Source of the DNA: a virus
Taxonomy: Duplodnaviria > Heunggongvirae > Uroviricota > Caudoviricetes
Length of the DNA stretch: 17,558 nucleotides
IMG/VR virus record: IMGVR_UViG_2675903278_000001
Reading direction: 5' to 3' (one strand)
The notes below the pieces were generated by a model. The model was not told the DNA's origin and searched no databases. It was given only the letters and a program-made list of their open reading frames with translations. The position numbers and the translations under genes were made by a program. Position 1 is the first letter of the stretch. Each line of letters opens with the position of its first letter. Positions 1-17,558 of the stretch are shown in pieces.

Positions 1-242
1 AAAATCGTGTTGAGGCCAACGCCCATAATGCGGGCGGTTGCCCGGCATCCAACACCATTCATGGCCATATCAATGATTTTCTGGTGTGTACCGGGTTGAG
101 AAGCGGTGTAAGTGAACTGCAGTTGCCATGTTTTACGGCAGTGAGAGCAGAGATAGCGCTGATGTCCGGCAGTACTTTTACCGTTACGCACCACGCCTTC
201 AGTAGCTGAGCAGGAGGGACAACTGATGGAGATGGAAGCCAC
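1..242 (-). CDS. insA: IS1 InsA transposition regulator, truncated by the window edge (about 80 of ~91 codons present)
   Basis: Manual translation of the minus strand from a GTG at 242-240 gives [80 protein letters not shown], matching IS1 InsA with its Cys-rich zinc-finger-like N-terminus. Not in the ORF track because it has no stop inside the window. Confidence 0.85.
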
Positions 243-297
243 GGGAGCACCTCAAAAACACCATCATACACTAAATCAGTAAGTTGGCACCATTACC
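1..297 (-). mobile_element. IS1 insertion sequence, partial (terminal ~297 bp including one inverted-repeat end; the rest lies beyond the window start)
   Basis: Reverse complement of 260-297 reads GGTAATGGTGCCAACTTACTGATTTAGTGTATGATGG, the characteristic IS1 terminal inverted repeat (recalled from memory). The adjacent minus-strand reading frame translates as InsA. The element abuts Rz coding sequence at 297/298. Confidence 0.88.
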
Positions 298-628
298 GGC
301 GAACGCCACCATTACTGACATGCAGCAGCGCCAGCGTGATGCTGATGCACTCGATGATAAATACACGAAGGAGTTAGCTGATGCGAAAGCTGAAAATGAT
401 GCTCTTCGGCGCAAGCTTGATAATGGTGGTCGGGTGCTCGTCAAAGGAAAATGCCCTGTGCCATCCTCAGCCGAAACCTCCAGCGCCTCCGGCATGGGCA
501 ATGATGCCACCGTCGAACTCTCTCCAGTTGCTGGACGAAACGTTCTCGGTATCCGGGACGGAATTATCCGCGACCAAACAGCACTGAGAACGCTTCAGGA
601 ATACATCAGGACGCAATGCCTTCGATGA
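298..628 (+). pseudogene. Rz: Rz i-spanin, 3' fragment only (N-terminal ~40 codons removed or displaced by the IS1 insertion)
   Basis: The ORF-track protein 284-628 (ANATITDMQQRQRDADALDDKYTKELADAKAENDALRRKL...QEYIRTQCLR) matches the C-terminal two-thirds of lambda Rz. The frame is closed upstream by TAA at 272-274, inside IS1; the track's start at 284 is a TTG inside the IS1 terminus, not a real start. Confidence 0.85.
381..587 (+). CDS. Rz1: Rz1 o-spanin, outer-membrane lipoprotein embedded in the +1 frame of Rz
   Basis: 68 aa, MRKLKMMLFGASLIMVVGCSSKENALCHPQPKPPAPPAWAMMPP...: signal peptide with a VVGC lipobox and a proline-rich mature part, as in lambda Rz1. ATG at 381 is preceded by GGAG at 371-374. 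Wholly nested in the Rz remnant. Confidence 0.82.
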   Translation: MRKLKMMLFGASLIMVVGCSSKENALCHPQPKPPAPPAWAMMPPSNSLQLLDETFSVSGTELSATKQH

Positions 629-802
629 TAGCGATAATTTTACTCATCATCCTTCACATCTGGCTCTGTAGACAGGGTGGTGCTCACTTCTGGAGTGAAT
701 CCAGATTAAACATCTCATTGCTGATGCTTGATATTGAGCATTTTGCGCGCGGTAAGGGGCTGCGTTGAGATAAGAGTCAGTCATTACAAATACCAGGATT
801 TA

Positions 803-826
803 GCCTCGCATTCGCGGGGCTTTTTA
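803..826 (+). terminator. Putative intrinsic terminator-like hairpin (GC-rich imperfect stem followed by TTTTT) downstream of Rz/Rz1
   Basis: agCCTCGCattcGCGGGGcttttta at 803-826: imperfect GC-rich stem followed by a T-run on the plus strand. Confidence 0.4.
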
Positions 827-840
827 TTGCCATTACAAAA

Positions 841-860
841 GCCACTTCCTACAGAGTGGC
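841..860. other. Hairpin-forming inverted repeat GCCACT-N8-AGTGGC
   Basis: gccacttcctacagagtggc at 841-860: 6-bp perfect stem with an 8-nt loop, followed by TTTG on the plus strand. Function unknown. Confidence 0.3.
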
Positions 861-1119
861 TTTGATAATGGCTTATACCCTACACGGGATAACTTAACTG
901 ATATCCCTTTTAAAGGATAAAGGTATTCAAGCCTGACACATCATGCGCTGTATCGTCGCCGTATTCCCGTATTAACAGAGACCGTAGCCCGACGGGGAAC
1001 TCCTTCTGCGCGAGTGTGTGGGAATAATCAAAAACGATGCACACCGGGGTTACCGGGTACACATATTTCATCATGCCAGCGAGTCCGGTTCTGGCACGGA
1101 AGAAACCGGACGTTATGAT

Positions 1120-1545
1120 TTAGTGCGGAAATATTTGTGTAGTGTTCTGAATGTTCTCAGTAAAGAGTAATGAATTATCAAAGGTATAGTAATACCTTTT
1201 GTTTTCGTGGATATTTGTAATCCATCTGAAAACCCCTGCTGTAGCAAGATTTTTCCTGTATTCGTAAAATGATAACTCTCCTGATTTGAATCCTTTTAAG
1301 GTGGCTTCTATAAGGCATTTATTTTTTGAAAATCTTACATTTACAACCTTACCCTGTCCTTTTATTAAAACCGTATTATCGTTTTCAAGAACAAGATGAA
1401 TATTCTCTGTGGCTAAATAGTAAATGTAATGTGAGACATTGTGACGTTTTAGTTCAGAATAAAACCAGTGATAGTTTAAATTATTTCGCACTTTATCGAA
1501 TATTTGTTTAAAAATGGCAACCTGAGCCATTGTAGTACCTTCCAT
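1120..1545 (-). CDS. Hypothetical protein, 141 aa (136 aa from the second Met), AT-rich accessory gene, function unknown
   Basis: Complete minus-strand ORF in markedly AT-rich DNA. The second ATG (MAQVAIF...) is preceded by GGAAGG, so the real start is probably 1530. Lies 41 bp downstream (same strand) of the RHH-like ORF. I recognise no known domain. A closely similar ORF exists near the right end of lambda as far as I recall. Confidence 0.65.
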
Positions 1546-1586
1546 GTGATATGAGGGGTGTAGTCTGCACGATTATCTAAATTGCT

Positions 1587-1820
1587 TCAATCTGGTCTGA
1601 TCTGTTTTCTGAGCAATTCAGTAATGTCACTCTTTTCTTTGTTTGCTTCAGGAGAAACTCTTTTTTCTGAGCACAGTCTCCGGCGGCAGGCTTCAATGAC
1701 CCAGGCTGAGAAATTCCCGGACCCTTTTTGATCAAGAGCGATGTTAATTTGTTCAATCATTTGGTTAGGAAAGCGGATGTTGCGGGTTGTTGTTCTGCGG
1801 GTTCTGTTCTTCGTTGACAT
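1587..1820 (-). CDS. Small ribbon-helix-helix-like (Arc/MetJ/CopG-type) putative DNA-binding protein, 77 aa
   Basis: MSTKNRTRRTTTRNIRFPNQMIEQINIALDQKGSGNFSAWVIEACRRRL...: basic N-terminal tail, a short beta-strand motif (RNIRFP), then two helices, which is the typical RHH layout. GGGA lies upstream of the ATG (minus strand). Sits directly beside cos and is transcribed away from it. Confidence 0.6.
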   Translation of the reverse strand: MSTKNRTRRTTTRNIRFPNQMIEQINIALDQKGSGNFSAWVIEACRRRLCSEKRVSPEANKEKSDITELLRKQIRPD

Positions 1821-1989
1821 GAGGTTGTCCCGTATTCAGTGTCGCTGATTTGTATTGTCTGAAGTTGTTTTTACGTTAAGTTGATGCAGATCAATTAATA
1901 CGATACCTGCGTCATAATTGATTATTTGACGTGGTTTGATGGCGTAGATGCACGTTGTGACATGCAGATGATAATTATTATCATTTTGC

Positions 1990-2190
1990 GGGTCCTTTCC
2001 GGCGATCCGACAGGTTACGGGGCGGCGACCTCGCGGGTTTTCGCTATTTATGAAAATTTTCCGGTTTAAGGTGTTTCCGTTCTTCTTCGTCGTAACTTAA
2101 TGTTTTTATTTAAAATACCCCCTGAAAAGAAAGGAAACGACAGGTGCTGAAAGCGAGCTTTTTGGCCTCTGTCGTTTCCTTTCTCTGTTT
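1990..2190 (+). promoter_or_regulatory. cos: cos site: cosQ, cosN (12-nt cohesive-end sequence GGGCGGCGACCT at 2020-2031) and cosB with R3, IHF-site region, R2 and R1 terminase small-subunit binding elements
   Basis: ggttacgGGGCGGCGACCTcgcgggttttcgc matches the lambda cohesive-end junction. R-element-like repeats: gtgtttccgttcttcttcg (~2071-2089), gaaaagaaaggaaacgacag (~2124-2143, inverted), ctgtcgtttcctttctctg (~2169-2187). An A/T-rich stretch at ~2100-2120 lies between R3 and R2, where lambda has the IHF site I1. Confidence 0.9.
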
Positions 2191-2208
2191 TTGTCCGTGG
2201 AATGAACA

Positions 2209-2728
2209 ATGGAAGTCAACAAAAAGCAGCTGGCTGACATTTTCGGTGCGAGTATCCGTACCATTCAGAACTGGCAGGAACAGGGAATGCCCGTTCTGCG
2301 AGGCGGTGGCAAGGGTAATGAGGTGCTTTATGACTCTGCCGCCGTCATAAAATGGTATGCCAAAAGGGATGCTGAAATTGAGAACGAAAAGCTGCGCCGG
2401 GAGGTTGAAGAACTGCGGCAGGCCAGCGAGGCAGATCTCCAGCCAGGGACTATTGAGTACGAACGCCATCGACTTACGCGTGCGCAGGCCGACGCACAGG
2501 AACTGAAGAATGCCAGAGACTCCGCTGAAGTGGTGGAAACCGCATTCTGTACTTTCGTGTTGTCGCGGATCGCAGGTGAAATTGCCAGTATTCTCGACGG
2601 GATCCCCCTGTCGGTGCAGCGGCGTTTTCCGGAACTGGAAAACCGACATGTTGATTTCCTGAAACGGGATATCATCAAAGCCATGAACAAAGCAGCCGCG
2701 CTGGATGAACTGATACCGGGGTTGCTGA

Positions 2729-2754
<26 letters not shown>
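2209..2754 (+). CDS. nu1: Terminase small subunit (DNA recognition, winged-HTH N-terminus)
   Basis: 181 aa, MEVNKKQLADIFGASIRTIQNWQEQGMPVLRGGGKGNEV... matches lambda gpNu1. Lies immediately downstream of cosB and overlaps A. Confidence 0.96.
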
Positions 2755-6435
<3,681 letters not shown>

Positions 6436-6455
<20 letters not shown>

Positions 6456-7755
6456 TCTCCCGCATATTGCCAGCATGGCCTTTAATGAGCCGCTGATGCT
6501 TGAACCCGCCTATGCGCGGGTTTTCTTTTGTGCGCTTGCAGGCCAGCTTGGGATCAGCCGCCTGACGGATGCGGTGTCCGGCGACAGCCTGACTGCCCAG
6601 GAGGCACTCGCGACGCTGGCATTATCCGGTGATGATGACGGACCACGACAGGCCCGCAGTTATCAGGTCATGAACGGCATCGCCGTGCTGCCGGTGTCCG
6701 GCACGCTGGTCAGCCGGACGCGGGCGCTGCAGCCGTACTCGGGGATGACCGGTTACAACGGCATTATCGCCCGTCTGCAACAGGCTGCCAGCGACCCGAT
6801 GGTGGACGGCATTCTGCTCGATATGGACACGCCAGGCGGAATGGTGGCGGGGGCATTTGACTGCGCTGACATCATCGCCCGTGTGCGTGACATAAAACCG
6901 GTATGGGCGCTGGCCAACGACATGAACTGCAGTGCAGGTCAGCTGCTTGCCAGTGCCGCCTCCCGGCGTCTGGTCACGCAGACCGCCCGGACAGGCTCCA
7001 TCGGCGTCATGATGGCTCACAGTAATTACGGTGCTGCCCTGGAGAAACAGGGTGTGGAAATCACGCTGATTTACAGCGGCAGCCATAAGGTGGATGGCAA
7101 TCCCTACAGCCATCTTCCGGATGACGTCCGGGAGACACTGCAGTCCCGGATGGACGCAACCCGCCGGATGTTTGCACAGAAGGTGTCGGCATATACCGGC
7201 CTGTCTGTGCAGGCTGTGCTGGATACCGAGGCTGCAGTGTACAGCGGTCAGGAGGCCATTGATGCCGGACTGGCTGATGAACTTGTTAACAGCACCGATG
7301 CGATCACCGTCATGCGTGATGCACTGGATGCGCGTAAATCCCGTCTCTCAGGAGGGCGAATGACCAAAGAGACTCAATCAACAACTGTTTCAGCCACTGC
7401 TTCGCAGACTGACGTTACTGACGTGGTGCCAGCGACGGAGGGCGAAAACGCCAGCGCGGCGCAGCCGGACGTGAACGCGCAGATCACCGCAGCGGTTGCG
7501 GCAGAAAACAGCCGCATTATGGGGATCCTCAACTGTGAGGAGGCTCACGGACGCGAAGAACAGGCCCGCGTGCTGGCAGAAACCCCCGGTATGACCGTGG
7601 AAACGGCCCGCCGCATTCTGGCAGCTGCACCACAGAGTGCACAGGCGCGCAGTGACACTGCGCTGGATCGTCTGATGCAGGGGGCACCGGCACCGCTGGC
7701 TGCAGGTAACCCGGCATCTGATGCCGTTAACGATTTGCTGAACACACCAGTGTAA
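6436..7755 (+). CDS. C: Prohead (capsid maturation) protease C, GTG start
   Basis: The ORF-track frame 6301-7755 contains VTAELRNLPHIASMAFNEPLMLEPAYARVFF..., and lambda gpC begins at the TAELRNL position. GTG at 6436 gives 439 aa, the lambda length. The track's start at 6301 is an in-frame upstream extension overlapping B and is not used. Confidence 0.92.
7150..7755 (+). CDS. nu3: Scaffolding protein Nu3, nested in-frame in the 3' part of C
   Basis: Internal ATG at 7150 in the C frame (MDATRRMFAQKVSAYTG...). Position corresponds to the lambda nu3 start; the nested in-frame arrangement is known lambda biology. Confidence 0.8.
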   Translation: MDATRRMFAQKVSAYTGLSVQAVLDTEAAVYSGQEAIDAGLADELVNSTDAITVMRDALDARKSRLSGGRMTKETQSTTVSATASQTDVTDVVPATEGENASAAQPDVNAQITAAVAAENSRIMGILNCEEAHGREEQARVLAETPGMTVETARRILAAAPQSAQARSDTALDRLMQGAPAPLAAGNPASDAVNDLLNTPV

Positions 7756-7764
7756 GGGATGTTT

Positions 7765-8097
7765 ATGACGAGCAAAGAAACCTTTACCCATTACCAGCCG
7801 CTGGGCAACAGTGACCCGGCACATACGGCAACCGCGCCCGGCGGATTGAGTGCGAAAGCGCCTGCAATGACCCCGCTGATGCTGGATACCTCCACCCGTA
7901 AGCTGGTTGCGTGGGATGGCACCACCGACGGTGCTGCCGTTGGCATTCTGGCGGTTGATGCTGACCAGACCAGCACCACGCTGACGTTCTACAAGTCCGG
8001 CACGTTCCGTTATGAGGATGTGCTCTGGCCGGAGGCTGCCAGCGACGAGACGAAAAAACGGACCGCGTTTGCCGGAACGGCAATCAGCATCGTTTAA
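7765..8097 (+). CDS. D: Head decoration (capsid-stabilising) protein D
   Basis: 110 aa from ATG 7765 ([27 protein letters not shown]...), matching lambda gpD. TAAGGGA precedes the start. The track's start at 7759 adds MF and is less likely. Confidence 0.95.
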
Positions 8098-8118
8098 CTT
8101 TACCCTTCATCACTAAAG

Positions 8119-8139
8119 GCCGCCTGTGCGGCTTTTTTT
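8119..8139 (+). terminator. Terminator-like hairpin between D and E (GCCGC-ctgt-GCGGC followed by T7)
   Basis: aaaGGCCGCctgtGCGGCttttttta: perfect 5-6 bp GC stem, 4-nt loop, seven T residues on the plus strand. Inside the late operon, so likely a partial terminator or RNA-stability element. Confidence 0.45.
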
Positions 8140-8152
8140 ACGGGATTTTTTT

Positions 8153-9178
8153 ATGTCGATGTACACAACCGCCCAGCTGCTGGCGGCAAATGAGCAGAAA
8201 TTTAAGTTTGATCCGCTGTTTCTGCGTCTCTTTTTCCGTGAGAGCTATCCCTTCACTACGGAGAAAGTCTATCTCTCACAAATTCCGGGACTGGTAAACA
8301 TGGCGCTGTACGTTTCGCCGATTGTTTCCGGTGAGGTTATCCGTTCCCGTGGCGGCTCCACCTCTGAATTTACGCCGGGATATGTCAAACCCAAGCATGA
8401 AGTGAATCCGCAGATGACCCTGCGTCGCCTGCCGGATGAAGATCCGCAGAATCTGGCGGACCCGGCTTACCGCCGCCGTCGCATCATCCTGCAGAACATG
8501 CGTGACGAAGAGCTGGCCATTGCTCAGGTCGAAGAGATGCAGGCAGTTTCTGCCGTGCTCAAGGGCAAATACACCATGACCGGTGAAGTCTTCGATCCGG
8601 TTGAGGTGGATATGGGCCGCAGTGCGGCGAACAACATCACGCAGTCCGGCGGCACGGAGTGGAGCAAGCGTGACAAGTCCACGTATGACCCGACCGACGA
8701 TATCGAAGCCTACGCGCTGAACGCCAGCGGCGTGGTGAATATCATCGTGTTTGATCCGAAAGGCTGGGCGCTGTTCCGTTCCTTCAAAGCCGTCAAGGAG
8801 AAGCTGGATACCCGTCGCGGCTCTCATTCCGAACTGGAGACAGCGGTAAAAGACCTGGGCGAAGCGGTGTCCTATAAGGGGATGTATGGCGATACGGCGA
8901 TCGTCGTGTATTCCGGACAGTACGTGGAAAACGACGTCAAAAAGAACTTCCTGCCGGACAACACGATGGTGCTGGGGAACACTCAGGCACGCGGTCTGCG
9001 CACCTATGGCTGCATTCAGGATGCGGACGCACAGCGCGAAGGTATTAACGCCTCTGCCCGCTACCCGAAAAACTGGGTGACCACCGGCGATCCGGCGCGT
9101 GAGTTCACCATGATTCAGTCAGCACCGCTGATGCTGCTGGCTGATCCTGATGCGTTCGTGTCCGTACAACTGGCGTAA
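8153..9178 (+). CDS. E: Major capsid protein E
   Basis: 341 aa from ATG 8153 (MSMYTTAQLLAANEQKFKFDPLFLRLFFRESYPF...), matching lambda gpE. The track's start at 8126 is an upstream extension. Confidence 0.96.
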   Translation: MSMYTTAQLLAANEQKFKFDPLFLRLFFRESYPFTTEKVYLSQIPGLVNMALYVSPIVSGEVIRSRGGSTSEFTPGYVKPKHEVNPQMTLRRLPDEDPQNLADPAYRRRRIILQNMRDEELAIAQVEEMQAVSAVLKGKYTMTGEVFDPVEVDMGRSAANNITQSGGTEWSKRDKSTYDPTDDIEAYALNASGVVNIIVFDPKGWALFRSFKAVKEKLDTRRGSHSELETAVKDLGEAVSYKGMYGDTAIVVYSGQYVENDVKKNFLPDNTMVLGNTQARGLRTYGCIQDADAQREGINASARYPKNWVTTGDPAREFTMIQSAPLMLLADPDAFVSVQLA

Positions 9179-9219
9179 TCATGGCCCTTCGGGGCCATTT
9201 TCTCTCTGTGGAGGAGTCC

Positions 9220-9615
9220 ATGACGAAAGATGAACTGATTGCCCGTCTTCAGGTGCTGGGTGAGCAACTGAACCGTGATGTCAGCCTGACGGGGACGAAA
9301 GAAGAACTGGTGCTCCGTGTGGCAGAGCTGGAAGAGGAGCTTGATGACACGGATGACGCTGCCGGTCAGGACACATCTGTCAGCCCGGAAAATGCGCTGA
9401 CCGGACATGAAAATGAGGTGGTATCAGCGCAGCCGGATACCGTGATTGATACGGCTGCTCTGGTCACGGTCGTGGCACTGGTGACGCTGCATACTGATGC
9501 ACTTCACGCCACGCGGGATGAGCCTGTGGCATTTGTGCTGCCGGGAACGGCGTTTCGTGTCTCTGCCGGTGTGGCAGCCGAAATGACAGAACATGGCCTG
9601 GCCAGAATGCAATAA
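9220..9615 (+). CDS. FI: DNA-packaging accessory protein FI
   Basis: 131 aa from ATG 9220 (MTKDELIARLQVLGEQLNRDVSLTGTKEEL...GLARMQ), matching lambda gpFI. By my coordinate arithmetic it is one codon shorter than the lambda reference. Confidence 0.93.
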   Translation: MTKDELIARLQVLGEQLNRDVSLTGTKEELVLRVAELEEELDDTDDAAGQDTSVSPENALTGHENEVVSAQPDTVIDTAALVTVVALVTLHTDALHATRDEPVAFVLPGTAFRVSAGVAAEMTEHGLARMQ

Positions 9616-9626
9616 CGGGAGGCGCT

Positions 9627-9980
9627 GTGGCTGATTCCGATAACCTGTTCGATGCTGCCATTGCCCGCGCCGATGAAACGATACGCGGGTACATGGGAAC
9701 GTCAGCCACCATGACATCCGGTGAGCAGTCCGGTGCTGTGATACGTGGTGTTTTTGATGACCCTGAAAATATCAGCTATGCCGGACAGGGGGTGCGCGTT
9801 GAAGGCTCCAGCCCGTCCCTGTTTGTCCGGACTGATGATGTGCGGCAGCTGCGGCGCGGCGACACGCTGACCATCGGTGAGGAAAACTTCTGGATAGACC
9901 GGATTTCGCCGGATGATGGCGGAAGCTGTCATCTCTGGCTTGGGCGGGGCGTACCGCCTGCCGTTAACCGTCGCCGCTGA
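9627..9980 (+). CDS. FII: Head-tail joining protein FII, GTG start
   Basis: 117 aa, (M)ADSDNLFDAAIARADETIRGYMGTSAT...GRGVPPAVNRRR, matching lambda gpFII. GGGAGG lies 6 nt upstream of the GTG. Confidence 0.94.
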   Translation: MADSDNLFDAAIARADETIRGYMGTSATMTSGEQSGAVIRGVFDDPENISYAGQGVRVEGSSPSLFVRTDDVRQLRRGDTLTIGEENFWIDRISPDDGGSCHLWLGRGVPPAVNRRR

Positions 9981-9991
9981 AAGGGGGATGT

Positions 9992-10570
9992 ATGGCCATA
10001 AAAGGTCTTGAGCAGGCCGTTGAAAACCTCAGCCGTATCAGCAGAACGGCGGTGCCCGGTGCCGCCGCAATGGCCATTAACCGCGTTGCTTCATCCGCGA
10101 TATCGCAGTCGGTGGCACAGGTTGCCCGTGAGACAAAGGTACGCCGGAAACTGGTAAAGGAAAGGGCCAGGCTGAAAAGGGCCACGGTCAAAAATCCGCA
10201 GGCCAGAATCAGGGTTAACCGGGGGGATTTGCCCGTAATCAAGCTGGGTAACGCGCGGGTTGTCCTTTCCCGCCGCAGACGTCGTAAAAAGGGGCAGCGT
10301 TCATCCCTGAAAGGTGGCGGCAGCGTGCTTGTGGTGGGAAACCGTCGTATTCCCGGCGCGTTTATTCAGCAACTGAAAAATGGCCGGTGGCATGTCATGC
10401 AGCGTGTGGCCGGGAAAAACCGTTACCCCATTGATGTGGTGAAAATCCCGATGGCGGTGCCGCTTACCACGGCGTTTAAACAGAATATTGAACGGATACG
10501 GCGTGAACGTCTTCCGAAAGAGCTGGGCTATGCGCTGCAGCATCAACTGAGAATGGTAATAAAGCGATGA
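9992..10570 (+). CDS. Z: Tail completion protein Z
   Basis: 192 aa, the length and position of lambda gpZ (MAIKGLEQAVENLSRISRTAVPG...). Confidence 0.94.
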   Translation: MAIKGLEQAVENLSRISRTAVPGAAAMAINRVASSAISQSVAQVARETKVRRKLVKERARLKRATVKNPQARIRVNRGDLPVIKLGNARVVLSRRRRRKKGQRSSLKGGGSVLVVGNRRIPGAFIQQLKNGRWHVMQRVAGKNRYPIDVVKIPMAVPLTTAFKQNIERIRRERLPKELGYALQHQLRMVIKR

Positions 10571-10962
10571 AACATACTGAACTCCGTGCAGCCGTACTGG
10601 ATGCACTGGAGAAGCATGACACCGGGGCGACGCTTTTTGATGGTCGCCCCGCTGTTTTTGATGAGGCGGATTTTCCGGCAATTGCCGTTTATCTCACCGG
10701 CGCTGAATACACGGGCGAAGAGCTGGACAGCGATACCTGGCAGGCGGAGCTGCATATTGAAGTTTTCCTGCCTGCTCAGGTGCCGGATTCAGAGTTGGAT
10801 TCGTGGATGGAGTCCCGGATTTATCCGGTGATGAGCGATATCCCGGCACTGTCAGATTTGATCACCAGTATGGTGGCCAGTGGCTATGACTACCGGCGCG
10901 ACGATGATGCGGGCCTGTGGAGTTCAGCCGATCTGACGTATGTCATTACCTATGAAATGTGA
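10567..10962 (+). CDS. U: Tail terminator protein U
   Basis: 131 aa ([31 protein letters not shown]...), the length and position of lambda gpU. 4-nt overlap with Z. Confidence 0.94.
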
Positions 10963-10969
10963 GGACGCT

Positions 10970-11710
10970 ATGCCTGTACCAAATCCTACAATGCCGGTGA
11001 AAGGTGCCGGGACCACCCTGTTGGTTTATAAGGGGAGCGGTGACCCTTATGCGAATCCGCTTTCAGACGTTGACTGGTCGCGTCTGGCAAAAGTTAAAGA
11101 CCTGACGCCCGGCGAACTGACCGCTGAGTCCTATGACGACAGCTATCTCGATGATGAAAATGCGGACTGGACTGCGACCGGGCAGGGGCAGAAATCTGCC
11201 GGAGATACCAGCTTCACGCTGGCGTGGATGCCCGGAGAGCAGGGGCAGCAGGCGCTGCTGGCGTGGTTTAATGAAGGCGATACCCGTGCCTATAAAATCC
11301 GCTTCCCGAACGGCACGGTCGATGTGTTCCGTGGCTGGGTCAGCAGTATCGGTAAGGCGGTGACGGCGAAGGAAGTGATCACCCGCACGGTGAAAGTCAC
11401 CAATGTGGGACGTCCGTCGATGGCAGAAGATCGCAGCACGGTGACGGCGACAACCGGCATGACGGTGACACCCGCCAGTGCTTCCGTAGTGAAAGGGCAG
11501 AGCACCACGCTGACCGTGGCATTCCAGCCGGAGTGCGCAACCGACAAGAGCTTCCGTGCGGTGTCTGCGGATAAAACAAAAGCCACCGTGTCGGTCAGTG
11601 GTATGACCATCACCGTGAAAGGTGTTGCTGCAGGCAAGGTCAACATTCCGGTCGTATCCGGTAATGGTGAGTTTGCTGCGGTTGCAGAAATCAACGTCAC
11701 CGCCAGTTAA
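10970..11710 (+). CDS. V: Major tail tube protein V with C-terminal Ig-like domain
   Basis: 246 aa from ATG 10970 ([36 protein letters not shown]...), matching lambda gpV. The T/V-rich C-terminal segment is typical of the Ig-like domain. The track's start at 10940 is an upstream extension. Confidence 0.95.
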
Positions 11711-11725
11711 TCCGGAGAGTCAGCG

Positions 11726-12148
11726 ATGTTCCTGAAAACCGAATCATTTGAACATAACGGTGTGACCGTCACGCTTTCTGAACTGTCAGCCCTGCAGCGT
11801 ATTGAGCATCTCGCCCTGATGAAACGGCAGGCAGAACAGGCGGAGTCAGACAGCAACCGGAAGTTTACTGTGGAAGACGCCATCAAAACCGGCGCGTTTC
11901 TGGTGGCGATGTCCCTGTGGCATAACCATCCGCAGAAGACGCAGATGCCGTCCATGAATGAAGCCGTTAAACAGATTGAGCAGGAAGTGCTTACCACCTG
12001 GCCCACGGAGGCAATTTCTCATGCTGAAAACGTGGTGTACCGGCTGTCTGGTATGTATGAGTTTGTGGTGAATAATGCCCCTGAACAGACAGAGGACGCC
12101 GGGCCCGCAGAGCCTGTTTTTGCGGGAAAGTGTTCGACGGTGAGCTGA
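11726..12148 (+). CDS. G: Tail assembly chaperone G
   Basis: 140 aa (MFLKTESFEHNGVTVTLSELSALQRIEHLALMKRQAEQ...), the length and position of lambda gpG. Ends just after the slippery heptamer. Confidence 0.94.
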   Translation: MFLKTESFEHNGVTVTLSELSALQRIEHLALMKRQAEQAESDSNRKFTVEDAIKTGAFLVAMSLWHNHPQKTQMPSMNEAVKQIEQEVLTTWPTEAISHAENVVYRLSGMYEFVVNNAPEQTEDAGPAEPVFAGKCSTVS

Positions 12149-12564
12149 GTTTTGCCCTGAAACTGGCGCGTGAGATGGGGCGACCCGACTGGCGTGCCAT
12201 GCTTGCCGGGATGTCATCCACGGAGTATGCCGACTGGCACCGCTTTTACAGTACCCATTATTTTCATGATGTTCTGCTGGATATGCACTTTTCCGGGCTG
12301 ACGTACACCGTGCTCAGCCTGTTTTTCAGCGATCCGGATATGCATCCGCTGGATTTCAGTTTGCTGAACCGGCGTGAGGCTGACGAAGAGCCTGAAGATG
12401 ATGTGCTGATGCAGAAAGCGGCAGGGCTTGCCGGAGGTGTCCGCTTTGGCCCGGACGGGAATGAAGTTATCCCTACTTCCCCGGATGTGGCGGACATGAC
12501 GGAGGATGACGTAATGCTGATGACAGTATCAGAAGGGATCGCAGGAGGAGTCCGGTATGGCTGA
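11726..12564 (+). CDS. T: Tail assembly chaperone G-T fusion, made by programmed -1 ribosomal frameshift at GGGAAAG (12124-12130)
   Basis: Slippery heptamer G GGA AAG sits in the G zero frame at 12124-12130. The -1 frame ORF (track 12130-12564, 144 aa) continues to 12564 and overlaps the H start, as in lambda. Confidence 0.85.
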
Positions 12565-15118
12565 ACCGGTAGGCGATCTGGTCGTTGATTTGAGTCTGGA
12601 TGCGGCCAGATTTGACGAGCAGATGGCCAGAGTCAGGCGTCATTTTTCCGGTACGGAAAGTGATGCGAAAAAAACAGCGGCAGTCGTTGAACAGTCGATG
12701 AACCGGCAGGCGCTGGCTGCACAGAAAGCGGGAATTTCCGTCGGGCAGTATAAAGCCGCCATGCGTATGCTGCCTGCGCAGTTCACTGACGTGGCCACGC
12801 AGCTTGCAGGCGGGCAAAGTCCGTGGCTGATCCTGCTGCAACAGGGGGGTCAGGTGAAGGACTCCTTCGGCGGGATGATCCCCATGTTCCGGGGGCTTGC
12901 CGGTGCGATCACCCTGCCGATGGTGGGGGCCACCTCGCTGGCGGTGGCGACCGGTGCGCTGGCGTATGCCTGGTATCAGGGCAACTCAACCCTGTCCGAT
13001 TTCAACAAAACGCTGGTCCTTTCCGGCAATCAGGCCGGGCTGACGGCAGATCGTATGCTGGTCCTGTCCAGAGCCGGGCAGGCGGCAGGGCTGACGTTTA
13101 ACCAGACCAGCGAGTCACTCAGCGCACTGGTTAAGGCGGGGGTAAGCGGTGAGGCTCAGATTGCGTCCATCAGCCAGAGTGTGGCGCGTTTCTCCTCTGC
13201 ATCCGGCGTGGAGGTGGACAAGGTCGCTGAAGCCTTCGGGAAGCTGACCACTGACCCGACGTCGGGGCTGACAGCGATGGCGCGCCAGTTCCATAACGTG
13301 ACGGCGGAGCAGATTGCGTATGTTGCTCAGTTGCAGCGTTCCGGCGAAGAAGCCGGGGCATTGCAGGCGGCGAACGAGGCCGCGACGAAAGGGTTTGATG
13401 ACCAGACCCGCCGCCTGAAAGAGAACATGGGCACGCTGGAAACCTGGGCAGACAGGACAGCACGGGCATTCAAATCCATGTGGGATGCGGTGCTGGATAT
13501 TGGTCGTCCTGATACCGCGCAGGAGATGCTGATTAAGGCAGAGGCCGCGTTTAAGAAAGCGGACGATATCTGGAATCTGCGCAAGGATGATTATTTTGTT
13601 AACGATGAAGCGCGGGCGCGTTACTGGGATGATCGTGAAAAGGCCCGTCTTGCGCTTGAAGCCGCCCGAAAGAAGGCTGAGCAGCAGAGTCAACAGGACA
13701 AAAATGCGCAGCAGCAGAGCGATACCGAAGCGTCACGGCTGAAATATACCGAAGAGGCGCAGAAGGCTTACGAACGGCTGCAGACGCCGCTGGAGAAATA
13801 TACCGCCCGTCAGGAAGAACTGAACAAGGCACTGAAAGACGGGAAAATCCTGCAGGCGGATTACAACACGCTGATGGCGGCGGCGAAAAAGGATTATGAA
13901 GCGACGCTGAAAAAGCCGAAACAGTCCGGCGTGAAGGTGTCTGCGGGCGATCGTCAGGAAGACAGTGCTCATGCTGCCCTGCTGACGCTTCAGGCAGAAC
14001 TCCGGACGCTGGAGAAGCATGCCGGAGCAAATGAGAAAATCAGCCAGCAGCGCCGGGATTTGTGGAAGGCGGAGAGTCAGTTCGCGGTACTGGAGGAGGC
14101 GGCGCAACGTCGCCAGCTGTCTGCACAGGAGAAATCCCTGCTGGCGCATAAAGATGAGACGCTGGAGTACAAACGCCAGCTGGCTGCACTTGGCGACAAG
14201 GTTACGTATCAGGAGCGCCTGAACGCGCTGGCGCAGCAGGCGGATAAATTCGCACAGCAGCAACGGGCAAAACGGGCCGCCATTGATGCGAAAAGCCGGG
14301 GGCTGACTGACCGGCAGGCAGAACGGGAAGCCACGGAACAGCGCCTGAAGGAACAGTATGGCGATAATCCGCTGGCGCTGAATAACATCATGTCAGAGCA
14401 GAAAAAGACCTGGGCGGCTGAAGACCAGCTTCGCGGGAACTGGATGGCAGGCCTGAAGTCCGGCTGGAGTGAGTGGGAAGAGAGCGCCACGGACAGTATG
14501 TCGCAGGTAAAAAGTGCAGCCACGCAGACCTTTGATGGTATTGCACAGAATATGGCGGCGATGCTGACCGGCAGTGAGCAGAACTGGCGCAGCTTCACCC
14601 GTTCCGTGCTGTCCATGATGACAGAAATTCTGCTTAAGCAGGCAATGGTGGGGATTGTCGGGAGTATCGGCAGCGCCATTGGCGGGGCTGTTGGTGGCGG
14701 CGCATCCGCGTCAGGCGGTACAGCCATTCAGGCCGCTGCGGCGAAATTCCATTTTGCAACCGGAGGATTTACGGGAACCGGCGGCAAATATGAGCCAGCG
14801 GGGATTGTTCACCGTGGTGAGTTTGTCTTCACGAAGGAGGTAACCAGCCGGATTGGCGTGGGGAATCTTTACCGGCTGATGCGCGGCTATGCCACCGGCG
14901 GTTATGTCGGTACACCGGGCAGCATGGCAGACAGCCGGTCGCAGGCGTCCGGGACGTTTGAGCAGAATAACCATGTGGTGATTAACAACGACGGCACGAA
15001 CGGGCAGATAGGTCCGGCTGCTCTGAAGGCGGTGTATGACATGGCCCGCAAGGGTGCCCGTGATGAAATTCAGACACAGATGCGTGATGGTGGCCTGTTC
15101 TCCGGAGGTGGACGATGA
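12557..15118 (+). CDS. H: Tail tape-measure protein H
   Basis: 853 aa, exactly the lambda gpH length, with helical repeat-rich composition. Sits between G/T and M. Confidence 0.96.
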   Translation: MAEPVGDLVVDLSLDAARFDEQMARVRRHFSGTESDAKKTAAVVEQSMNRQALAAQKAGISVGQYKAAMRMLPAQFTDVATQLAGGQSPWLILLQQGGQVKDSFGGMIPMFRGLAGAITLPMVGATSLAVATGALAYAWYQGNSTLSDFNKTLVLSGNQAGLTADRMLVLSRAGQAAGLTFNQTSESLSALVKAGVSGEAQIASISQSVARFSSASGVEVDKVAEAFGKLTTDPTSGLTAMARQFHNVTAEQIAYVAQLQRSGEEAGALQAANEAATKGFDDQTRRLKENMGTLETWADRTARAFKSMWDAVLDIGRPDTAQEMLIKAEAAFKKADDIWNLRKDDYFVNDEARARYWDDREKARLALEAARKKAEQQSQQDKNAQQQSDTEASRLKYTEEAQKAYERLQTPLEKYTARQEELNKALKDGKILQADYNTLMAAAKKDYEATLKKPKQSGVKVSAGDRQEDSAHAALLTLQAELRTLEKHAGANEKISQQRRDLWKAESQFAVLEEAAQRRQLSAQEKSLLAHKDETLEYKRQLAALGDKVTYQERLNALAQQADKFAQQQRAKRAAIDAKSRGLTDRQAEREATEQRLKEQYGDNPLALNNIMSEQKKTWAAEDQLRGNWMAGLKSGWSEWEESATDSMSQVKSAATQTFDGIAQNMAAMLTGSEQNWRSFTRSVLSMMTEILLKQAMVGIVGSIGSAIGGAVGGGASASGGTAIQAAAAKFHFATGGFTGTGGKYEPAGIVHRGEFVFTKEVTSRIGVGNLYRLMRGYATGGYVGTPGSMADSRSQASGTFEQNNHVVINNDGTNGQIGPAALKAVYDMARKGARDEIQTQMRDGGLFSGGGR

Positions 15119-15444
15119 AGACCTTCCGCTGGAAAGTGAAACCCGGTATGGATGTGGCTTCGGTCCCTTCTGTAAGAAAGGTGCGCTTTGGTGATGGCTA
15201 TTCTCAGCGAGCGCCTGCCGGGCTGAATGCCAACCTGAAAACGTACAGCGTGACGCTTTCTGTCCTCCGTGAGGAGGCCACGGTACTGGAGTCGTTTCTG
15301 GAAGAGCACGGGGGCTGGAAATCCTTTCTGTGGACGCCGCCTTATGAGTGGCGGCAGATAAAGGTGACCTGCGCAAAATGGTCGTCGCGGGTCAGTATGT
15401 TGCGTGTTGAGTTCAGCGCAGAGTTTGAACAGGTGGTGAACTGA
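15115..15444 (+). CDS. M: Tail tip protein M
   Basis: 109 aa (MKTFRWKVKPGMDVASVPSVRKVRFGDGYSQRAPAGLNANLKTYS...), the length and position of lambda gpM. 4-nt overlap with H. Confidence 0.94.
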   Translation: MKTFRWKVKPGMDVASVPSVRKVRFGDGYSQRAPAGLNANLKTYSVTLSVLREEATVLESFLEEHGGWKSFLWTPPYEWRQIKVTCAKWSSRVSMLRVEFSAEFEQVVN

Positions 15445-16142
15445 TGCAGGATATCCGGCAGGAAACACTGAATGAATGCACCCGTGCGGAGCAGTCGGCC
15501 AGCGTGGTGCTCTGGGAAATCGACCTGACAGAGGTCGGTGGAGAACGTTATTTTTTCTGTAATGAGCAGAACGAAAAAGGTGAGCCGGTCACCTGGCAGG
15601 GGCGACAGTATCAGCCGTATCCCATTCAGGGGAGCGGTTTTGAACTGAATGGCAAAGGCACCAGTACGCGCCCCACGCTGACGGTTTCTAACCTGTACGG
15701 TATGGTCACCGGGATGGCGGAAGATATGCAGAGTCTGGTCGGCGGAACGGTGGTCCGGCGTAAGGTTTACGCCCGTTTTCTGGATGCGGTGAACTTCGTC
15801 AACGGAAACAGCGAAGCCGATCCGGAGCAGGAGGTGATCAGCCGCTGGCGCATTGAGCAGTGCAGCGAACTGAGCGCGGTGAGTGCCTCCTTTGTACTGT
15901 CCACGCCGACGGAAACGGATGGCGCTGTTTTTCCGGGACGTATCATGCTGGCCAACACCTGCACCTGGACCTATCGCGGTGACGAGTGCGGTTATAGCGG
16001 TCCGGCTGTCGCGGATGAATATGACCAGCCAACGTCCGATATCACGAAGGATAAATGCAGCAAATGCCTGAGCGGTTGTAAGTTCCGCAATAACGTCGGC
16101 AACTTTGGCGGCTTCCTTTCCATTAACAAACTTTCGCAGTAA
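15444..16142 (+). CDS. L: Tail tip protein L (Cys-cluster, Fe-S-binding C-terminus)
   Basis: 232 aa, the length and position of lambda gpL. The C-terminus carries clustered cysteines (CTWTYRGDECGYSG...KDKCSKCLSGCKF). Confidence 0.94.
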   Translation: MQDIRQETLNECTRAEQSASVVLWEIDLTEVGGERYFFCNEQNEKGEPVTWQGRQYQPYPIQGSGFELNGKGTSTRPTLTVSNLYGMVTGMAEDMQSLVGGTVVRRKVYARFLDAVNFVNGNSEADPEQEVISRWRIEQCSELSAVSASFVLSTPTETDGAVFPGRIMLANTCTWTYRGDECGYSGPAVADEYDQPTSDITKDKCSKCLSGCKFRNNVGNFGGFLSINKLSQ

Positions 16143-16147
16143 ATCCC

Positions 16148-16891
16148 ATGACACAGACAGAATCAGCGATTCTGGCGCACGCCCGGCGATGTGCGCCAGC
16201 GGAGTCGTGCGGCTTCGTGGTAAGCACGCCGGAGGGGGAAAGATATTTTCCCTGCGTGAATATCTCCGGTGAGCCGGAGGCGTATTTCCGTATGTCGCCG
16301 GAAGACTGGCTGCAGGCAGAAATGCAGGGTGAGATTGTGGCGCTGGTCCACAGCCACCCCGGTGGTCTGCCCTGGCTGAGTGAGGCCGACCGGCGGCTGC
16401 AGGTGCAGAGTGATTTGCCGTGGTGGCTGGTCTGCCGGGGGACGATTCATAAGTTCCGCTGTGTGCCGCATCTCACCGGGCGGCGCTTTGAGCACGGTGT
16501 GACGGACTGTTACACACTGTTCCGGGATGCTTATCATCTGGCGGGGATTGAGATGCCGGACTTTCATCGTGAGGATGACTGGTGGCGTAACGGCCAGAAT
16601 CTCTATCTGGATAATCTGGAGGCCACAGGGCTGTATCAGGTGCCGTTGTCATCAGCACAACCGGGCGATGTGCTGCTGTGCTGTTTTGGTTCATCGGTGC
16701 CGAATCATGCCGCCATTTACTGTGGTGATGGCGAGCTGCTGCACCATATTCCTGAACAACTGAGCAAACGAGAGAGGTATACCGACAAATGGCAGCGACG
16801 CACACACTCCCTCTGGCGTCACCGGGCATGGCGCGCATCTGCCTTTACGGGGATTTACAACGATTTGGCCGCCGCATCGACCTTCGAGTGA
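16148..16891 (+). CDS. K: Tail tip assembly protein K (JAB/MPN metalloprotease-like N-domain plus NlpC/P60-like C-domain); start uncertain, internal alternative at 16292
   Basis: 247-aa ORF starting 6 nt after the L stop. Contains HSHPGG...SEAD (JAMM-like H-x-H...S-x-x-D) and, downstream, DCYTLF and NHAAIY (Cys and His of an NlpC/P60-like fold). The internal ATG at 16292 (MSPEDWLQAEMQG...) would give the shorter classical lambda K. Confidence 0.85.
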   Translation: MTQTESAILAHARRCAPAESCGFVVSTPEGERYFPCVNISGEPEAYFRMSPEDWLQAEMQGEIVALVHSHPGGLPWLSEADRRLQVQSDLPWWLVCRGTIHKFRCVPHLTGRRFEHGVTDCYTLFRDAYHLAGIEMPDFHREDDWWRNGQNLYLDNLEATGLYQVPLSSAQPGDVLLCCFGSSVPNHAAIYCGDGELLHHIPEQLSKRERYTDKWQRRTHSLWRHRAWRASAFTGIYNDLAAASTFE

Positions 16892-17430
16892 AAACGGGGT
16901 CCGAAGCCATCCGGGCGCTGGCCATGCAGATCCCGGCATTTCGTCAGAAACTGAGCGACGGCTGGTACCAGGTACGCATTGCCGGGCGTGATGCAGGTGA
17001 AACCGAATTGTCTGCCCGTCTTAATGAGCCGCTGGAAAATGGTGCCGTGATCCATATCGTGCCGCGTCTGGCAGGAGCCAAAAGTGGCGGTGTGTTTCAG
17101 GCTGTGCTGGGGGCGGCTGTTATGGCGGTTGCTATATGGATGCCGGGGGTAGGAATTATGGCGAGTAATCTGCTGTTTTCTCTCGGTGCCAGTATGACGC
17201 TTGGCGGTGTTGCACAGATGCTGGCCCCTAAACCCAAAACCCCCCGCACACAGACAACGGATAACGGCAAACAGAATACCTATTTTTCTTCACTGGATAA
17301 CATGGTTGCCCAGGGCAATGTTCTGCCGGTTCTGTACGGTGAAATGCGCGTGGGGTCACGCGTGGTTTCTCAGGAGATCAGCACGGCAGACGAAGGGGAT
17401 GGTGGTCAGGTTGTGGTGATTGGTCGCTGA
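16789..17430 (+). CDS. I: Tail tip assembly protein I
   Basis: 213 aa (MAATHTLPLASPGMARICLYGDLQRFGRRIDLRVKTG...GDGGQVVVIGR). Overlaps the K 3' end by ~100 nt in another frame, as in lambda. Confidence 0.9.
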   Translation: MAATHTLPLASPGMARICLYGDLQRFGRRIDLRVKTGSEAIRALAMQIPAFRQKLSDGWYQVRIAGRDAGETELSARLNEPLENGAVIHIVPRLAGAKSGGVFQAVLGAAVMAVAIWMPGVGIMASNLLFSLGASMTLGGVAQMLAPKPKTPRTQTTDNGKQNTYFSSLDNMVAQGNVLPVLYGEMRVGSRVVSQEISTADEGDGGQVVVIGR

Positions 17431-17447
17431 TGCAAAATGTTTTATGT

Positions 17448-17469
17448 GAAACCGCCTCCGGGCGGTTTT
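17448..17469 (+). other. Hairpin in the I-J intergenic region (ACCGCC-tccg-GGCGGT followed by TTT)
   Basis: gaaACCGCCtccgGGCGGTtttatcgttt: 6-8 bp GC-rich stem with a short T-run. Probably an RNA-stability or weak pause element. Confidence 0.35.
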
Positions 17470-17490
17470 ATCGTTTATGGAGCATGACGA

Positions 17491-17558
17491 ATGGGTAAAG
17501 GCAGCAGTAAGGGGCATACCCCGCGCGAAGCGAAGGACAACCTGAAGTCCACGCAGCT
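17491..17558 (+). CDS. J: Central tail fibre / host-specificity protein J, 5' end only (continues past the window)
   Basis: ATG at 17491 followed by MGKGSSKGHTPREAKDNLKSTQ, the lambda gpJ N-terminus. GGAG lies upstream. Confidence 0.9.
   Translation, partial: MGKGSSKGHTPREAKDNLKSTQ

Follow-up and report, generated by a model that had tools for sequence, protein, structure and literature searches.

What is left of a two-component spanin when an insertion sequence lies against the i-spanin gene, and how did the two come to be joined? The question is raised by the first 628 nt of the window, that is, the whole 17,558-nt stretch of DNA that was analyzed. Here the end of an IS1-family element abuts the 3' part of a lambda-type Rz gene, and the o-spanin gene Rz1 is embedded in that part. 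The observation is confirmed, and its interpretation as a whole is partly supported.

The IS1 end and the truncated Rz gene

The window begins inside IS1, with 297 nt of the element visible, the insA-proximal (IRL) end only. Many IS1 records in E. coli match this segment at 100% over 297 of 297 nt, and the best match reaches at least 99% in 740 records of E. coli chromosomes and plasmids. The segment corresponds to positions 472-768 of a complete 768-bp IS1 copy in strain 4/4 (L015 730-1497). The IRL tip lies at 297 and reads GGTAATGGTGCCAACTTACTG... on the minus strand. The terminal inverted repeat is present (minus-strand 297-275, GGTAATGGTGCCAACTTACTGAT) and is the same as the end of the complete copy. 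The insA gene starts with a GTG at 242-240 on the minus strand and runs leftwards past the window edge. Its 80 visible codons (window 3-242, minus strand) match Zn_ribbon_InsA (PF03811, 4.3e-21) and HTH_Tnp_IS1 (PF12759, 2e-24). The element is a variant that is ~94% identical over 297 nt, and ~93% over the full 768 bp (L015), to the IS1A and IS1B copies of the fetched relatives. An outward promoter in the IS1 tip driving Rz1 was considered and rejected; a consensus scan placed the first plus-strand site only at 1091.

In relatives, the uninterrupted Rz gene is 468 nt long and encodes 155 aa. Homology to it begins exactly at window position 298, which is L001 3001 and nucleotide 138 of the 468-nt gene. 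The boundary between IS1 and Rz is exact because base 297, a C in the window, is already unlike the A found in Rz. Codon K46 contributes only its third base, at 298, and the first whole Rz codon is A47 at 299-301. The remnant comprises the last 331 nt of the gene, and its translation agrees at every residue (100% identity) with positions 47-155 of the intact 155-aa protein. It matches the Pfam profile Phage_lysis (PF03245) at 2.8e-25 and positions 47-154 of 154 of phrog_13, 'Rz-like spanin', at 8.5e-49. Chance resemblance is excluded for the IS1, Rz and Rz1 identities.

Missing are the start codon, the transmembrane domain at the N-terminus and ~22 residues at the beginning of the periplasmic part. 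In lambda, Rz has the type II topology in the inner membrane, and its N-terminal transmembrane domain spans residues 1-24 (PMC5295617). No such domain was found at the head of the window's Rz, where residues 1-46 are replaced by IS1. The first in-frame starts are a TTG at 284 and an ATG at 320, and a Shine-Dalgarno motif lies upstream of neither. Rz residues 1-46 and a second copy of Rz were both found to be absent anywhere in the 17,558-nt window. The 114-aa form of the truncated ORF, starting at the TTG, has no exact record in the protein collection. The 102-aa form, starting at the ATG, is on record, always in contigs that have other lesions and not this IS1 junction. Read from the sequence, the segment 298-628 is a gene remnant and not a functional i-spanin; with the anchor and the start codon severed, no functional i-spanin can be made from it. 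The region should be annotated as a pseudogene of Rz that IS1 has truncated at its 5' end, together with an intact Rz1 ORF.

Rz1 lies within the Rz remnant and has its own ribosome-binding site. Its product matches PF06085 over positions 1-41 of 41 (3.8e-21) and phrog_3198 over positions 1-68 of 68. In the protein collection, at least 998 contigs carry the exact Rz1 sequence under the name 'lysis system o-spanin lipoprotein Rz1'. The signal sequence and lipobox end in ...LIMVVGC, with the cysteine at position 19 (MRKLKMMLFGASLIMVVG-C19-SS). Lipoylation is predicted, the residue at +2 is not Asp, and a proline-rich stretch follows the lipobox cysteine. We infer that Rz1 continues to be transcribed and produced.

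The first-pass annotation had placed the IS1 terminus at 297 with Rz resuming at 298, had found the Rz frame stopped inside IS1, and had concluded that no intact Rz can be made from this segment and that Rz1 keeps its start, ribosome-binding site and lipobox. These points hold, with the homology starting at 298, the first whole codon following one base later, the Rz N-terminus lost and the Rz1 product identical to an annotated o-spanin. The coordinates are collected in Table 1.

Table 1. Features at the junction, and the lesions and junctions compared with it. Positions are those of the window unless a locus (L) is named.
Feature	Position	Strand	Evidence or remark
IS1-family element, right-hand 297 nt	1-297	minus	100% identity to full copies; InsA Pfam domains
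Promoter-like site GTGCCA-16-TATGAT	290-263	minus	promoter scan; points into IS1
TAA in the Rz reading frame, inside IS1	272-274	plus	sequence and ORF list; closes the frame upstream of the remnant
IS1 end, window junction	297/298		this window; counted among the Rz lesions
i-spanin gene Rz, 3' remnant, residues 47-155 and stop	298-628	plus	100% identical to intact alleles; PF03245, phrog_13
GGCGAACGC, 9 bp of Rz adjoining the IS1 tip	298-306		target-site duplication expected if simple insertion; inferred from other IS1 events
9-mer CACCATTAC in Rz	307-315	plus	word count; same as the IS1-tip 9-mer at 288-296; 10 nt from the junction
Ribosome-binding site AAGGAG, 7 nt before the Rz1 ATG	368-373	plus	read from sequence
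o-spanin gene Rz1, intact, 68 aa, +1 frame of Rz	381-587	plus	Pfam PF06085 and phrog_3198, full length
IS1A, duplication CCATTACTG, strain 2015C-3121	L014 3280-4075		~10 nt downstream of the window junction, other Rz allele
IS5-family end	L007 1-68, L011 1-68		16 nt upstream of the window junction
IS3-family end	L013 1-47		18 nt upstream of the window junction
bet-Rz deletion junction	L006 1830-1850		3 nt or less from the window junction
Rac rzpR breakpoint, K-12	L022 4346-4645		near the window junction
Nonsense GAA to TAA, Rz codon 35	L008 ~3215-3225		~30 nt further upstream
int'-IS1A-ompC junction, ybhC side	L016 11610-14566, L017 3867-5571, L018 3071-4775		ET76, ES1 and EC6

Origin of the junction

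The junction probably arose by a simple insertion, that is, by a recent transposition of the IS1 variant into Rz codons 46-49 of a lambda-like prophage. Such a jump, with the transposase genes facing away from the Rz remnant, would have parted the start and membrane anchor of Rz (residues 1-46) from its periplasmic coiled-coil part (47-155). The remnant has no start codon preceded by a ribosome-binding site, and a product made from it would have neither a membrane anchor nor an export signal. Beyond the left edge of the window would then lie the matching IS1 end, a duplication of GGCGAACGC, as the first-pass annotation expected, and a 5' Rz stub. Under simple insertion, the left flank would be Rz nucleotides 1-146 ending in GGCGAACGC (or GGCGAACG), and the left junction would read ...GAACTGGAGAAGGCGAACGC/GGTAATGACTCC..., after rrrD and essD. 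The 5' stub is predicted to encode Rz 1-49 plus VMTPTY. The predicted left junction, with an 8- or 9-bp duplication, is absent from the species-representative genomes and from the JGI metagenomes. For the 5' stub, four candidate proteins were predicted, from two alleles and with either a 9-bp or an 8-bp duplication, and an exact look-up found none of them on record.

IS1 is 768 bp long, produces an 8-9-bp duplication upon insertion, and also makes replicative deletions (PMC12428005). A rearrangement bounded by IS1, whether a deletion, an inversion or an IS1-IS1 recombination, is an alternative, possible but rather unlikely. It would have removed or moved the DNA between the IRL and Rz nucleotide 138 and left no target-site duplication. 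Rz would have lost its 5' part, either deleted or relocated, probably together with R, S and more, and the prophage would be a cryptic remnant without any lysis cassette. Junctions of this kind occur in related elements: an int'-IS1A-ompC junction without a duplication is found in ET76, ES1 and EC6, and an xis-IS1B-essD junction in 13C1065T. The bet-Rz deletion junction lies at nearly the same Rz position (Table 1), and the Rac prophage of K-12 has a 5'-deleted rzpR with an intact rzoR. Adjacent deletions made replicatively by IS1 are attributed to Turlan and Chandler (1995), as cited in PMC12428005. However, the survey of comparable events points toward insertion: as a rough prior, eight independent IS1 events were compared (seven in prophage regions of the fetched relatives, and L015, an unrelated chromosomal site in strain 4/4), and six of the eight are simple insertions with an 8-9-bp duplication, one of them Rz::IS1A in strain 2015C-3121, versus two deletion junctions without a duplication. 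The window itself holds no direct sign of a deletion. Moreover, its IS1 shares only 94% identity with the IS1A and IS1B copies found at the deletion junctions of the relatives, so that it is none of those copies. The candidate explanation that it is the same copy is thus ruled out and, because the variant differs from them, the IS1 here represents a separate event. The counts of events together with the distinct variant place simple insertion ahead of rearrangement. Of the earlier statement that IS1 inserted into Rz, the anatomy of the junction and the identity of both partners are secure, but the act of insertion is a probable reading, given that two of the eight comparable events are deletions.

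An assembly artefact would be another explanation, in which a contig ending in the repeated IS1 was joined to the wrong flank and Rz is really intact. IS1 is a multi-copy repeat, found in a median of ~10 places per E. coli genome, and none of the collections searched contains this exact junction. A 141-nt query across the window junction is absent from 5,426 complete E. coli genomes, and the exact junction pattern is absent from the species-representative genomes, the JGI metagenomes and IMG/VR. But homology to Rz breaks off precisely where the IS1 inverted repeat has its last base, which is what a genuine transposition end demands, and a mis-join would not take away 137 nt of Rz. A comparable real junction, Rz::IS1A, is also known from a complete genome. 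An artefact is therefore extremely improbable.

The location of the simple insertion favored here raises a further question, whether this part of Rz is broken repeatedly. Seven independent lesions fall inside a ~60-nt stretch of Rz, all but the L008 nonsense codon at positions homologous to window ~280-330 (Table 1), in a small sample gathered via the 102-aa ORF look-up and the junction query, which favors breaks upstream of the internal ATG. That the Rz stretch just upstream of Rz1 is a recurrent breakpoint, at which prophages repeatedly lose the i-spanin and keep the o-spanin lipoprotein, seems very doubtful. One conceivable cause would be that the Rz codons A-T-I-T (GCCACCATTACT) mimic the IS1 terminus and attract IS1. 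Another conceivable cause would be host selection to disarm lysis while retaining the Rz1 lipoprotein. Sites preferred by IS1 reportedly resemble the ends of the element. The 9-mer CACCATTAC occurs in three copies in the window versus 0.12 expected by chance, and the copy in Rz may be a cue in target choice. If the clustering of breakpoints proved real in a systematic survey, it would inform how resident prophages get disarmed. Public assemblies also contain, in at least eight places, the same Rz allele with a deletion that joins nin-region DNA to Rz codon ~5 (L005 4700-4720).

Prophage context and consequence for lysis

The window is a lambda-type late region. It contains Rz/Rz1, a 50-aa ORF, minus-strand DUF1398 and YlcI/YnfO genes and the cos region, followed by Nu1, A, W, B, C, D, E, FI, FII, Z, U, V, G, T, H, M, L, K, I and the start of J. 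The head and tail ORFs from Nu1 to I are all open. The conserved 50-aa ORF at 616-768 belongs to phrog_11822. Downstream of it and of the lysis genes lie a hairpin that resembles a terminator and has a T-run (802-830) and, after it, an inverted repeat of 18 nt (829-872). The DUF1398 and YlcI/YnfO (DUF3950) genes occupy window 1120-1820 between the lysis cassette and cos, on the minus strand, and are conserved in all relatives. They look like moron-type genes, and their position is the one where lambda carries bor. A search for known RNA families in the window found none.

Against E. coli ET76, EC6 and ES1, window positions 298 to 17558 give a gap-free alignment with '100.0%' identity, and Rz is whole in all three. 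A direct count against ET76 gives 8 substitutions over the 17,261 nt, and the stretch 298-628 contains none of these. By this measure of sequence divergence, the disruption of Rz is recent, because the window differs so little from a relative with a whole Rz and because the IS1 segment is identical to other copies of the element.

Five substitutions are specific to the window when it is compared with ET76, JS01 and VTB97420v (positions 777, 5902, 8589, 10795 and 15266), and all are G:C to A:T. Three of the five change an amino acid (G350D in the portal, A146V in the major capsid protein and P51L in tail protein M), and at each of these three residues ET76, JS01 and VTB97420v agree with one another. 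The substitutions fit relaxed selection on a prophage that no longer makes virions, or a mutational bias of the source, in numbers too small for proof.

The prophage lies in the lambda attachment region, between ybhC and ybhB, in ET76, ES1, EC6, JS01 and VTB97420v. In ET76, ES1 and EC6, a truncated int is joined via IS1A, without a target duplication, to DNA just beyond ompC/nmpC, and because of this deletion the early region from xis through Q is gone. ET76 and ES1 also have a ybhI::IS1A insertion in common, and EC6 has a further IS1A at the ompC 5' end. JS01, VTB97420v and PSS-13, which are 99.3-99.9% identical over the window, keep O, P, the nin region and quuD (Q); the repressor was shown for JS01 and VTB97420v. 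The prophage analyzed here may not be inducible at all, as is suggested by the three nearest relatives without int through Q. If its source resembles these three, the prophage would already be cryptic and a lysis phenotype would never be seen. The first-pass annotation had suggested that the insertion is recent, and the recency is borne out. It had also described the prophage as possibly spanin-defective, with head and tail genes that all look intact. The open structural genes agree with that description, but 'intact' is doubtful for the prophage as a whole, given that ET76, ES1 and EC6 lack the early region including Q.

A functional two-component spanin was not found: the i-spanin is truncated, and Q and pR', which would lie outside the window, are missing in the three nearest relatives. 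[quoted passage not shown] A lone o-spanin cannot disrupt the outer membrane. Should the prophage still be inducible, lysis would be expected to halt once the cells are spherical. In ordinary operons the polar effect of IS1 is well known. Late transcription in lambdoid prophages, however, is Q-antiterminated and expected to read through terminators. The argument for IS1 polarity on Rz1 and the head genes is therefore weak; a literature search on IS1 polarity versus antitermination found nothing directly useful. Most likely, the loss of Rz is a further neutral step by which a resident prophage decays and not a regulated state.

The significance of the locus is small beyond annotation. A prophage should not be scored 'intact' merely because its head and tail genes are open. 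Completeness calls that rest on structural genes overlook small lesions in lysis genes and, as in the nearest relatives, the early region may be lost altogether despite open structural genes.

Comparison with known systems

The loss of Rz by IS1 with Rz1 spared is a known kind of event, and the exact allele is not recorded elsewhere. The reference arrangement is the embedded Rz/Rz1 pair of lambda. As in lambda, the Rz1 gene is embedded in Rz in the +1 frame, both genes are recognized by their Pfam domains (Phage_lysis and Rz1), and the lipobox of Rz1 is VVGC. The intact Rz allele of the relatives is 63% identical to lambda Rz. In contrast to lambda, the window keeps only Rz residues 47-155, with the anchor and the start cut off by IS1. 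The element itself has the same terminal repeat and the same InsA zinc-ribbon and HTH domains as IS1A and IS1B of E. coli K-12, and differs from them as a variant that is ~93-94% identical.

The closest counterpart is Rz::IS1A in an Stx-type prophage of E. coli 2015C-3121 (NZ_CP027340.1, L014). The IS1 has the same orientation there, and Rz1 is whole downstream. Both IS1 ends are visible, and the 9-bp duplication CCATTACTG lies close to the position homologous to the window junction (Table 1). In its annotation, the gene is split into two pseudogene halves, both called 'lysis protein'. This case differs from the window in its IS1A variant, its diverged Rz allele (~85% DNA identity) and its prophage type.

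The Rac prophage of E. coli K-12 MG1655 provides a second likeness. It is a defective lambdoid prophage in which a 5'-truncated rzpR (300 nt) encloses an intact rzoR. In Rac, unlike the window, no insertion sequence is annotated at the junction, rzpR directly follows ydaW, and most late genes are lost. Set beside these systems, an IS1 that cuts off the first third of Rz and leaves Rz1 untouched is an ordinary recent step in prophage decay and not a new kind of system.
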